Source: Escherichia phage vB_EcoM_LNA2. Taken from it: a DNA stretch of 64,000 bases. Numbering within the stretch: the stretch's first letter is position 1; each line of letters starts with the position of its first letter. The stretch lies in sequence record MZ311865.1. One strand, 5' to 3'. Made by a program: the position numbers and the translations under genes. Positions 1-12,167 of this stretch are shown piece by piece. The notes below the pieces were generated by a model that was not told the DNA's origin, ran no database searches, and saw nothing but the letters and a program-made list of their open reading frames with translations.

Positions 1-382
1 GAGAAGCTTTAATTTCGTCAAACTTGTCGAGTACTGCCTGGTCTTCAGCGATTAAATTTTCGTACATCTCGATATCTTTCTTGATAAACTCGATATCTTC
101 CTGGGTTACTTTGGATAAACGAGATGCTTTATCCTTTTTGTACTGCTCGTTAGTTTCACGAGACCAGAATAATGTACGTTTTTTGTTAGTGTTTTTGTAG
201 ACTTCCACAATTCCAACTGAATCGATGATAGCAATCCAATTCCAGCGAGATTTGAAAATCTGACCTCCGTCCACGGTAATCTCGTTACCATAAGCAACGT
301 CATTAAAGAACTTGCTTTGTGCTTCAGATTTAAATTTACCGTCGTTATAATTTACCAGGTTGAAAATATCTTTAGCGTTCAT
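1..382 (-). CDS. hypothetical protein, N-terminal part only (gene runs off the window start)
   Basis: ATG at 382-380 preceded by GGAGG; hand translation MNAKDIFNLVNYNDGKF... stays open to position 1 (about 127 codons, no stop). The track ORF 106..303 is in another frame and is probably spurious. Confidence 0.5.
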   Translation of the reverse strand, partial: MNAKDIFNLVNYNDGKFKSEAQSKFFNDVAYGNEITVDGGQIFKSRWNWIAIIDSVGIVEVYKNTNKKRTLFWSRETNEQYKKDKASRLSKVTQEDIEFIKKDIEMYENLIAEDQAVLDKFDEIKAS

Positions 383-409
383 GTTTTACCTCCAGTAGTT
401 GATAGGTCT

Positions 410-438
410 ATAATAACATAACTATAGACCTTGTAAAC
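410..438 (-). promoter_or_regulatory. T4-type early promoter
   Basis: Minus strand GTTTAC (433-438), 17-bp spacer, TATTAT (410-415), upstream of the gene starting at 382. Confidence 0.6.
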
Positions 439-440
439 AA

Positions 441-728
441 CTAAAAGAAACTTTTTTCGGTATTTTTTCCACTGAACCAAACCGACTTCGGGGTTTTCTG
501 TAATTTTTCGGATTTAAGTTTCTCTTCCTGTTCTTTCTTATATGCATCCTTGTCGTACTGGAACAACTCTAGGGCATTCTTTTGTAGACGGTCTAAGGTA
601 ATTAAGGCTTTAGTTTTTCCTTTCAAGGAAGAGTCCTGGCGAACCTCCTCGCTATATTGCATTGTAGAACTAACCATACGATGAGCATAGAGTTCGACTG
701 CGGCTTTAATTTTTTGCATAAAATCCAT
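441..728 (-). CDS. hypothetical protein (95 aa)
   Basis: ORF track; GAGGA-like RBS before ATG; lies between two other minus-strand early genes. Confidence 0.45.
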   Translation of the reverse strand: MDFMQKIKAAVELYAHRMVSSTMQYSEEVRQDSSLKGKTKALITLDRLQKNALELFQYDKDAYKKEQEEKLKSEKLQKTPKSVWFSGKNTEKSFF

Positions 729-2556: not shown

Positions 2557-3546
2557 TTATTTATAGTAAGAATTATGATTTTCGAGATAGACTTGCTCAA
2601 GGAAATCATCCCAGAAACTCATATCTACTTTTTGTTGCATACCGTTCTTAGCGGCTTGTTCTGATGCTTGTTCAACTTGGTCAACGATATCTTCTAGGAA
2701 TTCTTGTACAGTTTTAAACGTATGTTTACCAAGCTTAACATCGAGAATAAATGGAGCATCCTGAAGCGGGTAAACCAGGTCACCGGTTTTGTAAATTTCC
2801 AATAATTGAAGTCCACCACGACATGCATGACTCAATGCTTTCCAGTCAATACCTTCGTTGGCTTCCGCCTTACGAGCACGTTCACCATAGTTCTCTTCCA
2901 GTTTAACCAGGATGGCATTGAACTCTTTATTGGTTAACGTGTCTTGGAATTTACGGTCCAACAGATTATAGAATGTTTGCTTACCTGTTTTCTCGTTTTC
3001 GGTTTCAACCCATGAAGCAAATTCACCTACAGGCAGAACGTTCTTCATATGTGATAAACGAATTACTGCACCATTATCAAAGTATTGTCCCCATTCATTA
3101 GAACGTTTAAGGGCTTGACGAAGAACAGCCAGTCGAGAACCCTTGACACCATATTTAGAAGCTTGCTTACGGACATACCCTAAATAAGATTTCATGTTAG
3201 TGGTATAGAAACGAGACCTGTTATCTTGAATATACTTCCATACATCAGGCAAATCAGATTTAACTACTAGACTTTGTGGGGTGTGAAGCATATCTAATGC
3301 GACGGTTTCACCATCTGCAGCTAGTTTAAAGAAATATTTGAGACTATACAACTCATGGTCCACGTCGTCTTTTGTGTTCTTAGAAGCAGTGTTGTTAGTG
3401 TTCTTGCTCATGTGTTCTTTAACGTTACCGGTCAAGATATCACGAGCATGAGGGACATAAATTTCTTTAAAATCGACGTCAGATTCAGGAGTAGACGTTC
3501 CATAAAGGTGGCTACCAAAGTAGCCTTTCATAATTGTTTTCATCAT
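2557..3546 (-). CDS. putative nucleotidyltransferase-fold protein (Pol-beta superfamily motif), subfamily unknown
   Basis: N-terminal GSHLYGTSTPESDVDF fits the hG[GS]-x9-13-Dh[DE]h NTase signature; a downstream hhhD strand candidate (TVALDML); start overlaps the stop of the upstream membrane-protein gene (ATGA). Confidence 0.6.
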   Translation of the reverse strand: MMKTIMKGYFGSHLYGTSTPESDVDFKEIYVPHARDILTGNVKEHMSKNTNNTASKNTKDDVDHELYSLKYFFKLAADGETVALDMLHTPQSLVVKSDLPDVWKYIQDNRSRFYTTNMKSYLGYVRKQASKYGVKGSRLAVLRQALKRSNEWGQYFDNGAVIRLSHMKNVLPVGEFASWVETENEKTGKQTFYNLLDRKFQDTLTNKEFNAILVKLEENYGERARKAEANEGIDWKALSHACRGGLQLLEIYKTGDLVYPLQDAPFILDVKLGKHTFKTVQEFLEDIVDQVEQASEQAAKNGMQQKVDMSFWDDFLEQVYLENHNSYYK

Positions 3547-6937: not shown

Positions 6938-7155
6938 GTCACCTTTAAGCAGTATTCTTCTACATGCTGTTTACGACCTTTCTTATCAATAAAGGTATAT
7001 TCAACGAATGTTCCAATGTAGTCTTTATCTACATCATGTGGACTATTAATTGGACATTTAGTACGACAAATGCGTTCCCATTGACGAATAATTACTGCCT
7101 TATTCTTTGGGTCGTATGGATGTGGATAATGTATATTCATAATAATGGTTCCCAA
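6928..7155 (-). CDS. hypothetical protein (75 aa)
   Basis: ORF track; overlapping start/stop with neighbours. Confidence 0.45.
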   Translation of the reverse strand: MGTIIMNIHYPHPYDPKNKAVIIRQWERICRTKCPINSPHDVDKDYIGTFVEYTFIDKKGRKQHVEEYCLKVTWL

Positions 7156-7634
7156 TCAACAATCACAATTTCTAGTTTAGTGGAATACGTATCTAAAATC
7201 TCTTCGATGATATCCCAGTTTCCGCCACCGATACCAGCACCAATTCTTGGCATATAAATTAAAGGCTTTGTTATCTTATTCTTTCCGAATTTATTTAATT
7301 CTATTATACAATTCATTAAAGCAGAGTACTCAAAATTAGGTCCAGGCTCAAACTGTGTATAAAGATTAAAGCAATAAGCTTTATGGGTCTTAAAATATTT
7401 TTCATAAACCGAATAAGACCCGAGTTTAGATTCGTCTCCGAATTCGGTTTGAAGTTTATCGGCTTCCAGAATTTTTGGATAAGCCTTTGCTAATTGTCCT
7501 GCCACACCAGCGCCCATTGTATGAAAACAATTACACCCATGAGCAATATTATTACCTTTAGAAAACAGGGCGACAATATCGCCCTTGATATAGTTTTTAA
7601 TCACTTGCTGCAAGTCCTCTAGTATAAGAGTCAA
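7137..7634 (-). CDS. macro-domain-like protein (possible ADP-ribose binding/hydrolase)
   Basis: Motifs NNIAHGCNCFHTMGAGVAGQLAKAYP and PRIGAGIGGGNW resemble the two glycine-rich phosphate-binding loops of macro domains; assignment by pattern only. Confidence 0.5.
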   Translation of the reverse strand: MTLILEDLQQVIKNYIKGDIVALFSKGNNIAHGCNCFHTMGAGVAGQLAKAYPKILEADKLQTEFGDESKLGSYSVYEKYFKTHKAYCFNLYTQFEPGPNFEYSALMNCIIELNKFGKNKITKPLIYMPRIGAGIGGGNWDIIEEILDTYSTKLEIVIVDWEPLL

Positions 7635-9306: not shown

Positions 9307-9572
9307 TAGTATTTTTCCTCTGGTTGAAATACCGCACGACAAGCCCACATACTAGCTTCTTTTAGATGTTGCTTAGCATACTTAAGAGCCTGCACTGCAT
9401 CCATATCTTCTTTGGTTTGTTGCTCTGTTTCATTTTCTTTTAAGATATATGCTTCTTCAATCAGAGCATCAAACATCAATCCAAGACGGACTTCTGCATC
9501 TTTAATAGCGTTCACTTTACTGATTTTATCGTCGGTATGTGGCTTGTAGCCTTTAATATCTTCAATCGACAT
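9306..9572 (-). CDS. hypothetical protein (88 aa)
   Basis: Track ORF 9306..9740; ATG at 9572 preceded by GAGGAAA ([10 protein letters not shown]...) is preferred because the longer form overlaps the upstream gene. Confidence 0.45.
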
Positions 9573-9786
9573 AAGGAATTTCCTCATCTGTGGCAAAGTC
9601 ATATTCGACCAATTGGATAGGCTCATTAATACCATATCCACGTACAGTGATATCAGTTGTCGGATAGTTTCCAGTAATATCACCCATTCTAAATGCTTCA
9701 ATGAATGATTGCTCGCCTGAGCAACTAAACCAGGCGGCAAAACATTTTAAAACATCTTCAGACCCTTCTATAATCAATTTAGCCAT
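9562..9786 (-). CDS. hypothetical acidic protein (74 aa)
   Basis: ORF track; start codon overlaps the stop of the GrcA-like gene. Confidence 0.45.
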   Translation of the reverse strand: MAKLIIEGSEDVLKCFAAWFSCSGEQSFIEAFRMGDITGNYPTTDITVRGYGINEPIQLVEYDFATDEEIPYVD

Positions 9787-10148
9787 TATAGACTCTCGGT
9801 AAAGGTACGAGCGATAACGTCGCGCTGCTGTTCCGGAGTCAGAGAGTTAAAGCGAACTGCATAACCTGATACACGGATGGTCAGCTGCGGATATTTTTCC
9901 GGATGCTTAACTGCATCTTCCAGAGTTTCACGACGCAGAACGTTAACGTTCAGGTGTTGACCACCTTCAATTTTAACTTTAGGTTGATGTTCAATTTCAA
10001 TTTCACGAGCATTCAAACCGTAGAAAATTTCTGGGTCTACAATAGAGTCTTCTTTAAAAGTCTTAGAGACAATAATCCGGGCTTGAGTACCGTCTTCAAA
10101 ATAAATAGTGCCTTTATGTGCACCTTCAAGAATTTGATATGCTTTCAT
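9786..10148 (-). CDS. autonomous glycyl radical cofactor (GrcA/YfiD-like, PFL C-terminal glycyl radical domain)
   Basis: C-terminal [59 protein letters not shown] carries the RVSGYAV glycyl-radical signature and is essentially identical to enterobacterial GrcA as recalled. Confidence 0.85.
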
Positions 10149-10154
10149 ATAACC

Positions 10155-10463
10155 TCAATTAGAAAATAAATTTATCCAAGATTGTTCTTTAATCAAAAAT
10201 GGGTCAGAATTAAACGCCATTAAACTTTGAGTGATTAATCCCTTAATTGGCCCATCAATAAATTCCATTTTGAAATGCGGAATACTAGTCATCAACCGTG
10301 CATTAGGAGCAGTACAAAGAACCTGCTGACCTGCGAACGGACCTTTAGTCAAACGATATCGTTTAGGTTTAAAATGGTAAATCTCGTAATTTTCTACAAG
10401 GGCCCTTTTATTGCATACTGGGCTGTTATAACAATATTCAAAAACTTCAATAGTGGACATCAT
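10155..10463 (-). CDS. hypothetical protein (102 aa)
   Basis: ORF track; 4-nt overlap with the upstream gene. Confidence 0.45.
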   Translation of the reverse strand: MMSTIEVFEYCYNSPVCNKRALVENYEIYHFKPKRYRLTKGPFAGQQVLCTAPNARLMTSIPHFKMEFIDGPIKGLITQSLMAFNSDPFLIKEQSWINLFSN

Positions 10464-11172: not shown

Positions 11173-11502
11173 TTATACTCTAGGCTTTTGAGCTTGTTTG
11201 GTATTGGATTCCCATGCGGCTTTGGTAATTTTGTTAGCGGCATAACCAAAGGCATTAGATAGAACACCTTTAGAGTTGAATACATCCAATCCAATAAGTA
11301 CACCGGCTGTGTTAAATTTAGGAGCAAAGTACGCATTAGTTTTAGAAAGAACTTTTTTCAATTCAGGGTCTTGAACCAAGTCATCAAAAACGCCTTTACT
11401 ATTTACTTTATATGTTACTTTGGGATTTTTACCTTCTTCGATAGCAGCTTTCTGTTCCGCAGATAATGTAACTTCAGTGATAAACTCCTGATATGTTTTC
11501 AT
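11173..11502 (-). CDS. internal-protein-family protein with capsid-targeting leader (109 aa)
   Basis: N-terminus MKTYQEFITE matches the T4 internal-protein capsid targeting sequence (cleaved by the gp21 prohead protease after the Glu). Confidence 0.7.
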   Translation of the reverse strand: MKTYQEFITEVTLSAEQKAAIEEGKNPKVTYKVNSKGVFDDLVQDPELKKVLSKTNAYFAPKFNTAGVLIGLDVFNSKGVLSNAFGYAANKITKAAWESNTKQAQKPRV

Positions 11503-11527: not shown

Positions 11528-11842
11528 TTATTCTTTAGGGAAGTTTTTAGAGTATGCATCATAAAGTTTATTACCAATACGGCGGAAGACTTTAGCTGCA
11601 AAACGGTTTTCAGGGTTTTTAATCATGATTTGCATCATGTAAGTTCCTGCATCCGAAAGAGCTTCTTCATAGTACCCATTAATTTCTTTAAGAGTCCTAC
11701 GTTTACCGCCAGGACCGTCAACAGTAATTTTCCATTTACCTGTAGAAGTGCGGCTCGGTGGCTCAACTTGTTCAATCCAAATATAACCGCCTTCAACGCG
11801 TTGGTTGGCGGATTCTGCAATAAATTCTTTATACGTTTTCAT
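11528..11842 (-). CDS. internal-protein-family protein with capsid-targeting leader (104 aa)
   Basis: N-terminus MKTYKEFIAE; early promoter at 11874-11903 with a perfect TATAAT. Confidence 0.7.
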   Translation of the reverse strand: MKTYKEFIAESANQRVEGGYIWIEQVEPPSRTSTGKWKITVDGPGGKRRTLKEINGYYEEALSDAGTYMMQIMIKNPENRFAAKVFRRIGNKLYDAYSKNFPKE

Positions 11843-11906: not shown

Positions 11907-12167
11907 TTAAGCTTTACCGCCAGAAATAATTCCGAAGTTGTTAAAATCGTATCCAATATCGTCAACATCTACTTTAGGGCTTGCTACAACATAAGCAATT
12001 TCACTACGTTTTGCATAGGTGTTGATTTCTTTACCATCGCCACCTAAGAAAGAATACCCATTACGTTTTAATGAGCCAAAGTCTTCCGCATCACCAATGA
12101 AAGCTTTAACTTTAAATTTAGGACCTTTGGCATCTGCTTCAATGATAAATTCTTGATACATTTTCAT
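11907..12167 (-). CDS. internal-protein-family protein with capsid-targeting leader (86 aa)
   Basis: N-terminus MKMYQEFIIE. Confidence 0.7.
   Translation of the reverse strand: MKMYQEFIIEADAKGPKFKVKAFIGDAEDFGSLKRNGYSFLGGDGKEINTYAKRSEIAYVVASPKVDVDDIGYDFNNFGIISGGKA

Follow-up and report, generated by a model that had tools for sequence, protein, structure and literature searches.

How does a strictly virulent phage that degrades the DNA of its host come to carry, inside one very small gene, a run of bases identical to a gene of that host? The question is raised by vs.6 in Escherichia phage vB_EcoM_LNA2 (sequence record MZ311865.1), of which we analysed a stretch of 64,000 nucleotides, here called the window. 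The gene is the orthologue of T4 vs.6, which encodes protein Y06I, and its 3' half matches the bacterial gene grcA. In our judgement the answer is very probably that an old phage grcA homologue, of the T4 vs.6/Y06I type, has had its structured glycyl-radical half replaced again and again with host grcA sequence through homologous recombination. The gene and its parts are as follows, in window coordinates.

9786..10148, minus strand: vs.6 coding sequence, 120 amino acids plus stop, ATG start, orthologue of T4 vs.6 / protein Y06I
9971..10148, minus strand: phage-lineage 5' part (gene nucleotides 1-178, codons 1-59 and part of codon 60), AT-rich, the diverged GrcA N-terminal half
9799..9970, minus strand: host-identical tract (gene nucleotides 179-350, codons 61-116 and flanking bases), encoding the structured glycyl-radical domain
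9786..9798, minus strand: 3' tail (last base of codon 117, codons 118-120 and the stop)

The host-identical tract of vs.6

The tract is an exact match, over 172 nucleotides, to nucleotides 200-371 of grcA in E. coli strain 503025: all 56 complete codons are the same and there is no synonymous difference. Across 5,426 complete E. coli genomes it is 100% identical in about one-tenth and 99.4% identical in many (including ST131); in the remaining E. coli the figure is 98.8% in K-12 and 98.3% in a few (one to three differences). By this measure the phage tract sits inside the polymorphism of the species E. coli. In other enterobacterial genera, grcA differs from that of E. coli by 8-17% in the tract with nearly the same protein, and over the last 180 nucleotides of vs.6 identity falls from 97.8% with E. 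coli through 96.7% with Escherichia sp. L008 to 91% or less with other genera. The gene for PflB, pyruvate formate-lyase (PFL), is about 80% identical to the tract at the DNA level, which points to grcA, and not PflB, as the donor.

A megablast comparison of the whole 64-kb window with the same 5,426 genomes found nothing E. coli-like outside the tract, and no nucleotide match to the 5' part of vs.6 was found in this genome set. Exact matches between the vs.6-like genes of other phages and 82 bacterial grcA genes are no longer than 17-56 nucleotides.

Base composition also sets the tract apart. Its GC content of 48.8% lies in the top 0.7% of segments of 172 nucleotides; the 5' part has 33.7% and the window as a whole 38.1%. 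All five leucine codons of the tract are CTG and all three proline codons CCG, for which phage usage is 9% and 18%, respectively. The initial annotation had proposed a comparison of codon usage with the rest of the phage, and the outcome is divided. GC content and the exclusive use of CTG for leucine and CCG for proline discriminate, but overall relative synonymous codon usage (RSCU) does not: on the phage codon table the mean log RSCU of the tract is no outlier (0.163 versus a background of 0.180 +/- 0.094), because many codons of highly expressed E. coli genes are also preferred by the phage.

At the protein level, that annotation had stated that the C-terminal 60 or so residues, including RVSGYAV, are essentially those of GrcA and that the N-terminal half is diverged. 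A codon-by-codon alignment bears this out: residues 61-120, including R92-V-S-G95-Y-A-V, are 100% identical to residues 68-127 of E. coli GrcA, and residues 1-60 show scattered identities only. Far more than a generic glycyl-radical motif is thus shared, as the exact match of 172 nucleotides makes plain, and T4 does carry such a protein, the orthologue vs.6/Y06I, at the same position and with 93.7% nucleotide identity.

The 5' part is of another kind. Its GC3 (GC at third codon positions) is 0.20, and a profile comparison of nine phage with ten bacterial GrcA N-terminal halves (hhalign) gave a probability of 94.1% with E=1.3e-7 over 50 columns at 28% identity, a remote homology. Given this match, vs.6 is a full-length, long-diverged grcA homologue and not a fusion. 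In 19 Tequatrovirus and Mosigvirus alleles, the 178 nucleotides of the 5' part fall into two deep, genus-specific haplogroups, and the window differs from T4 at 18 of the 178; the tract of the same alleles is without any genus-specific difference. Third codon positions differ between the window and T4 in 12 of 59 codons of the 5' part versus 1 of 56 in the tract (Fisher p=0.002), and identity to phage RB32 rises from 62-90% in the flanking genes and some 88-90% in the 5' part to 99% in the tract. The N-terminal half is diverged and AT-rich, yet conserved across phage genera. These comparisons show a tract of host DNA, sharply bounded and younger than its flanks; as far as sequence can tell, vs.6 as a whole is old in T-even phages and its 3' half alone is young, and is host DNA.

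Could the same identity have been preserved since an ancient acquisition, with no later exchange, by extreme purifying selection and a codon preference shared in a highly expressed gene? The domain is nearly invariant across Enterobacterales, CGT, GGT, GAA and AAA are preferred by phage and host alike, and the unexceptional RSCU of the tract would agree with such a history. Bacteria under the same protein constraint and with similar codon bias are nevertheless still 8-17% apart in the tract, however, and other phage genera under this constraint are merely 63-85% identical to the sampled host alleles. Shared preference also leaves the CTG and CCG codons unaccounted for, and selection cannot explain zero differences in 172 nucleotides next to a third-position divergence of 20% in the adjoining 5' part. 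We consider this explanation very improbable.

The limits of the tract are as informative as its content. On the left, the junction AAAATT|GAAGGT is common to all 19 E. coli-phage alleles and lies at the start of the EGGQHLNV motif, where even native phage versions peak in similarity to grcA. This boundary coincides with the structural split of YfiD (GrcA) into one half that is disordered and serves docking and another that is structured and inserts, a coincidence that points to differing constraints on the two halves of vs.6; since the boundary matches the split, the overwritten half would be the part that must fit host PflB and the host activase. On the right, host homology ends at the start of the next gene, vs.5, which is 67-80% identical between the window and RB32. 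Each of the final four codons carries one synonymous change, from ACT GAA AGC CTG in the host to ACC GAG AGT CTA in the phage. These changes create GAGAG (9793..9797), six bases before the vs.5 ATG (9784..9786), which overlaps the vs.6 stop codon in TAATG; from its sequence and spacing, we infer that GAGAG is a likely Shine-Dalgarno sequence for vs.5.

Probable exchange with the grcA alleles of E. coli and Klebsiella

Was the 3' half of vs.6 exchanged with host DNA once or several times? The tracts of the window and of Shigella phage sb2 equal the E. coli 503025 allele, with GTA at the polymorphic valine (Val93), and those of T4 and of three further phage alleles (L089, L090 and L091) equal the ST131/2013C allele, with GTC; in T4 the match is exact over 178 nucleotides. 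The RB69 tract is one base off the K-12 DH1 allele. Seven Escherichia alleles were sampled, and each of the five sites at which they vary is polymorphic in the phages too, showing the same base and in both genera; the overlap of polymorphic sites between host and phage has by itself a hypergeometric p of 0.01. The 3' end is a patchwork, in which T4 keeps the host codons ACT GAA, and phages L093 and p000v keep the host AGC. Since phage alleles equal differing E. coli alleles, polymorphisms are shared and 3' end-points vary, the pattern suggests that exchange occurred more than once.

An alternative is one recent host-to-phage transfer of the 3' half, followed by spread through Tequatrovirus and Mosigvirus by phage-phage recombination in co-infections. 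T-even phages recombine freely, and the left junction shared by 19 of 19 alleles, together with the lack of fixed genus-specific differences in the tract, would be consistent with a single origin. Phage tracts are also richer in private mutations than the sampled E. coli alleles, with 28 variable sites in the 19 phage alleles. However, a single transfer does not explain why phage alleles are identical to differing E. coli alleles, why five of five sampled host polymorphisms recur, or why variable 3' end-points retain different host codons. The shared left boundary is equally expected under repeated conversion, since homology stops there, and phages of another genus, Jiaodavirus, carry alleles of the Klebsiella complex in the same architecture, so that at least two founding events are needed anyway. 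A single transfer thus appears unlikely to us.

The Jiaodavirus case came from metagenome contigs searched for the host-type junction plus 90 nucleotides of the tract of Klebsiella phage Mineola. We recovered a bacterial contig, L183, that carries ung, a grcA of 127 amino acids and srmB. Positions 181-344 of Mineola vs.6 match its grcA exactly over 164 nucleotides, with the left boundary found in E. coli phages and a GC content of 56.4% in the tract and 36.5% in the 5' part. Over 9.7 kb, L183 is 93.9% identical to K. pneumoniae, which places it in a sister species of the K. pneumoniae complex. Six tract sites distinguish the L183 allele from true K. pneumoniae grcA, which we took from PLSDB chromosomes mislabelled as plasmids; the Jiaodavirus isolates Roth79 and RCIP0102 have the K. 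pneumoniae bases at subsets of these six sites, and a metagenomic Jiaodavirus-like fragment, L161, has them at all six. On these alignments, the tract is an independent acquisition from at least E. coli and Klebsiella. The initial annotation had proposed recent acquisition or ongoing exchange with the host; the DNA-level data support this, and the differing host alleles and the Klebsiella alleles favour ongoing exchange.

In all, 642 phage records carry the tract at 95% identity or more to the E. coli type and 107 Klebsiella phages at 80-90%, with two records in between. Karamvirus, Slopekvirus, Pseudotevenvirus and T5-like phages have AT-rich versions without the host tract, 63-85% identical to every sampled host allele.

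Several relatives deserve mention in their own right. The Slopekvirus-like Klebsiella phages KMI9 (L006), L104 and L105 have AT-rich tracts, 79-85% identical to any sampled host grcA, and encode the Klebsiella-type LLDAVEH, not the E. coli-type LEDAVKH; this may be an old, ameliorated conversion or the result of selection to match the host protein. A group of IMG/VR contigs of 90-154 kb (L109, L106-L111 and L117) has vs.6-like genes of 130 amino acids at about 301..690, with a more GrcA-like N-terminal half, and its best hosts are Haemophilus and other Pasteurellaceae. In L109, the 3' part of the tract includes a 56-nucleotide exact match to Haemophilus grcA, with an identity of about 74/75, and the related L106 has seven differences there; the L109 patch may be a third, partial host conversion. 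L116 (IMG/VR, 91% identical to Yersinia grcA) was dropped as a third case of host tracking: its N-terminus is of the bacterial type, which makes it a host gene on a 'viral' contig and no phage vs.6. L157-L166 were also set aside as vs.6 relatives, as they match only in the C-terminal part (77-79% amino acid identity, residues 57-120) and their tails resemble the PflB type and not the GrcA type at the DNA level. In the metagenome contig L184 (OIEZ01001054.1, 3710..3805 and the contig end), the encoded protein is Klebsiella-type GrcA in its N-terminal and middle parts, but of the PflB type in its last 20 or so residues (LTKEQQQDVITRTFTQTM); either the grcA/pflB repeat was mis-assembled into a chimera, or a natural grcA-pflB conversion took place in the host. 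Among the PLSDB entries, CP125156.1 (5.37 Mb) and NZ_CP093490.1 (339 kb) are labelled K. pneumoniae plasmids, yet both contain housekeeping genes of the chromosome (ung, grcA, srmB, nadB, rpoE and rseABC); CP125156.1 is evidently an entire chromosome that was entered as a plasmid.

Host reads mixed into phage assemblies could in principle give a chimeric consensus. Host and phage truly share the tract as a repeat, at which assemblers may break or mis-join; L161 begins inside the tract, and L184 may be a grcA/pflB chimera formed where its contig ends. But the same junctions occur in 642 independent phage records with the tract at 95% or more, including T4, RB32 and RB69, obtained by varied methods over decades, and the reading frame runs intact across the junction and on into phage-specific tail codons. 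An artefact of this kind strikes us as next to impossible.

In which direction did the DNA move? The composition of the tract and the congruent divergence of both grcA halves in bacteria lead us to infer that it went from host to phage. The reverse, in which the grcA 3' halves of E. coli and Klebsiella would be derived from phages, has a parallel in the two-way exchange reported for cyanophage psbA (PMC1484495), and individual single-base polymorphisms are compatible with either direction. However, the tract is host-like and not phage-like in composition, and among bacteria the divergence of the tract keeps pace with that of the 5' part of grcA, following the host phylogeny, with identities in the two parts of 98.0/98.8% for E. 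coli versus L008, 88.9/91.9% for E. coli versus Citrobacter and 84.4/83.1% for E. coli versus Salmonella. Infection by these phages is, moreover, lytic. A phage origin of the bacterial sequences is extremely improbable in our view.

Recurrent conversion from host grcA could work as follows. Replicating phage DNA would recombine with fragments of the host chromosome, presumably through the phage's own recombination machinery, so that the tract is installed and later refreshed by homologous recombination (gene conversion). On the left the event would be bounded by the collapse of phage-host similarity at the start of EGGQHLNV, and on the right by the stop codon and the start of vs.5. Once in place, a host-like tract would offer about 170 bp of perfect homology and make further conversion easier, with the consequence that the tract would evolve in concert with grcA of the host currently infected. 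That the 3' half of vs.6 does evolve in this way, by recurrent conversion in a strictly virulent T-even phage that degrades host DNA, we hold to be probable, with less assurance than the overwriting itself. In that event the best-studied phage family would hold, in this tract, a natural and direct trace of homologous recombination between phage and host, together with a built-in record of the recent host species, or even the host allele, from which T-even genomes and metagenomic contigs could be matched to their hosts.

Several observations weigh against this reading. The recombination with host DNA is deduced from patterns in the sequences. Our base-by-base reading covered 19 E. coli-phage alleles, 4-5 Klebsiella-phage alleles and about ten relevant host alleles (seven of them Escherichia), and the phage alleles were picked to span identity classes, not at random. 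Phages EcNP1, WFL6982 and p000v are 4-8 bases from every sampled E. coli allele in the tract; conversion would then be occasional and not continuous, too rare to keep all lineages identical. For the phage allele L092, no identical E. coli allele was found (98.8% at best), and it is either a recombinant of two host alleles or a carrier of its own mutations. Shared synonymous polymorphisms could in part be parallel mutations, and the single left boundary of all E. coli-phage alleles would also fit one founding event with phage-to-phage spread. Tequatroviruses isolated on Yersinia, Salmonella and Citrobacter carry the E. coli allele, 97.7-99.4% identical to the window tract (examples are Yersinia phages fPS-65, PYps35T and PYPS2T, Salmonella phage vB_Sen_BCPSen_003 and Citrobacter phage CrRp10), which suggests either that in nature these phages usually infect E. 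coli or that conversion follows a change of host with some delay. On the Klebsiella side, L161 could be an assembly chimera, as it begins inside the tract at a contig end. As for the protein, it scores 158.5 bits against the GrcA model of NCBIfam (TIGR04365), below the equivalog cut-off of 170 bits and compared with 234 for E. coli GrcA, and an in vivo benefit of vs.6 to the phage was not shown in the literature searched.

The predicted protein and its probable role

Which protein does this mosaic gene encode? TIGR04365 is still the top-scoring family, the shortfall coming from the diverged N-terminal half. The protein stands alone, as GrcA-type proteins of about 14 kDa do, and its C-terminal 60 or so residues duplicate the glycyl-radical domain of PFL with the glycine of RVSGYAV. 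The predicted radical residue maps as follows.

9864..9866, minus strand: codon of Gly95, the predicted glycyl-radical residue (RVSG95YAV), equivalent by alignment to GrcA Gly102 and PflB Gly734

The closest solved structure is that of GrcA (PDB 6OWR, E=1.5e-42), followed by PFL (1CM5/1H16), whose residues 696-759 align with residues 57-120 of the vs.6 protein (E=2.8e-26); other glycyl-radical enzymes match at E of 4e-12 or weaker. As the GrcA equivalog cut-off is narrowly missed, we file the protein under the phage Vs.6/Y06I family, which works like GrcA and to which it belongs.

The biochemistry of this family is known. According to PMC8683613, T4 Y06I and E. coli YfiD (GrcA) are the two biochemically validated spare-part proteins (Wagner et al. 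2001); the PFL-activating enzyme puts a glycyl radical on both, and both restore PFL that oxygen has cleaved at Gly734. This glycine is the radical and cleavage site of PFL, residues 61-127 of YfiD fold like PFL 693-759 and carry the radical, and residues 1-60, the counterpart of what the 5' part of vs.6 encodes, are disordered but needed to bind cleaved PFL and for efficient activation (PMC8683613). Given the orthology to Y06I and a C-terminal domain identical to that of host GrcA, the best functional reading, by analogy, is that the vs.6 protein would repair oxygen-damaged PFL during infection, as the initial annotation had suggested.

In such a scheme, the host PFL-activating enzyme would place a radical on Gly95, and the C-terminal half (residues 61-120) would insert into PFL whose radical domain oxygen had cut off at Gly734, restoring activity, with the N-terminal half aiding the docking onto damaged PFL. 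An infected cell, its transcription and DNA shut down, could not make GrcA itself, and with the phage copy PFL would stay active in microaerobic conditions, which would sustain the fermentative supply of acetyl-CoA, ATP and formate. Formate from PFL is the reductant of class III ribonucleotide reductase, an enzyme that T-even phages also encode.

It is possible that the protein serves another glycyl-radical enzyme instead, either the phage NrdD, as suggested for vs.6 in PMC1524935, or host TdcE or PflD. A role in nucleotide metabolism was proposed there from the Pfam match (Nolan et al. 2006), and spare parts for further glycyl-radical enzymes are the subject of speculation in PMC8683613. However, the domain is identical to that of host GrcA, its match to the C-terminus of PflB (E=2.8e-26) is far ahead of those to the others (4e-12 or weaker), and T4 Y06I complements cleaved PFL according to PMC8683613. 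A different target enzyme therefore seems quite improbable to us; a link of vs.6 to NrdD is more likely to be indirect, through formate.

Genomic setting and known systems

The window belongs to a Mosigvirus, its first 25 kb being 96-97% identical to vB_Eco_mar005P1 and JS09. The features around vs.6 are the following.

10153..10156, minus strand: GAGG Shine-Dalgarno sequence of vs.6, read directly from the sequence, overlapping the stop codon of vs.7
10155..10463, minus strand: vs.7, upstream neighbour, 102 amino acids (phrog_2049, E=6.9e-48)
9562..9786, minus strand: vs.5, downstream neighbour, 74 amino acids (phrog_1986, E=5.4e-39), its start overlapping the vs.6 stop

The vs.6 protein matches phage family phrog_1209 from end to end (E=5.6e-63), its residues 1-120 aligning with profile positions 1-121, and Pfam Gly_radical over residues 59-101 (E=2.2e-18). 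Its gene is annotated between vs.7 and vs.5 in RB32 and RB69, a position that the CC31 annotation supports as well, and is 98.9% identical to that of phage AV117 at the DNA level. The phrog_1209 match, the synteny with vs.7 and vs.5 and the DNA identity of 93.7% to T4 are the grounds on which we identify it as the T4 vs.6 orthologue. Around it in the window lie the genes of RegB, vs.1 (SLT), thymidine kinase (tk), endonuclease V (denV), lysozyme (e) and NudE, and the region is collinear with RB32 in the alignment. We found no convincing dedicated promoter or terminator near vs.6 (six promoter-like sequences versus 5.8 expected and three terminator-like sequences versus 1.1 expected from shuffles), and the gene is therefore probably transcribed within the co-directional vs.8-vs.1 cluster.

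Two patches, in the vs.3/vs.4 and vs.7 regions (9380..9515 and 10365..10443), are 42-64% identical to Tequatrovirus RB32, with indels, and form local hypervariable sites within this otherwise collinear cluster. Conserved T-even open reading frames of the early-gene cluster include a Macro-domain protein, the tk.4 orthologue (7137..7634, minus strand, E=4e-6), and a RlaP / DNA polymerase beta-family nucleotidyltransferase (2557..3546, minus strand, E=1.2e-12). Further along, three small open reading frames lie in tandem on the minus strand (11173..11502, 11528..11842 and 11907..12167; 109, 104 and 86 amino acids), with N-termini that are near-identical over ten residues: MKTYQEFITE, MKTYKEFIAE and MKMYQEFIIE. 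These resemble the capsid-targeting leader of the T4 internal proteins IPI, IPII and IPIII, and the three frames may be a variable set of injected internal proteins.

Was any of this seen before? In Nolan et al. 2006 (PMC1524935), vs.6 is listed only as a conserved open reading frame with a Gly_radical match, and a 2010 review of T4-related genomes saw few clues to the agents of lateral transfer or the import of foreign DNA (PMC2993671). DNA-level identity of vs.6 to grcA or tracking of host alleles was not found in the literature searched, which excluded the 2003 T4 genome review and Wagner 2001. The gene and its biochemical function are already known from T4 Y06I, and the signature of recurrent conversion is probably undescribed. 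With the protein and its likely job known, little is gained in annotation, and it is the DNA pattern that matters: donor, boundaries and direction of imported DNA can be read directly in T4 and some 640 relatives. The pattern suggests that virulent phages that destroy host DNA still recombine with it wherever homology exists, and that a host-derived module can stay matched to the current host while the rest of its gene diverges. The tract could also serve as a species-level marker of host of origin for T-even phages in therapy or metagenomes.

The nearest relative is T4 vs.6 itself, with a protein of 120 amino acids, the same place between vs.7 and vs.5 in the regB-e region, and the same mosaic and left junction. 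It differs in belonging to the other 5' haplogroup (18/178 nucleotides), in carrying the ST131-type GTC where the window has GTA at Val93, and in its tail, ACT GAA AGT TTG against ACC GAG AGT CTA in the window. With E. coli GrcA, vs.6 shares the design of a small stand-alone protein, the radical glycine, DNA identity over 172 nucleotides and remotely homologous N-terminal halves. However, the vs.6 protein is seven residues shorter and its N-terminal half about 28% identical, and its gene lies in a phage early/middle cluster, whereas grcA lies between ung and eamB or srmB. The C-terminal domain of PflB (696-759) has the same fold element and RVSGYAV, and is the part that the vs.6 protein would replace.

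The closest precedent for the exchange itself lies in the cyanophage genes psbA and psbD. Intragenic recombination of these genes with the host was reportedly described by Zeidner in 2005. They are host-derived metabolic genes of virulent, T4-like phages in which such recombination between host and phage is documented (Sullivan 2006, PMC1484495). As in vs.6, G+C is patchy along the gene and segments have been swapped between host and phage pools; compositional patchiness, a tract nested in host allele diversity and multiple exchanges, the kind of evidence used for psbA and psbD, are all found in vs.6, although in a small sample. In vs.6, however, only one half of a very small gene takes part in the exchange, within sharp bounds; its tract is base-identical to extant host alleles at the level of species and allele, the partner is a heterotrophic enterobacterium, and divergence in the remainder of the gene (28% amino acid identity) is far greater than in psbA.

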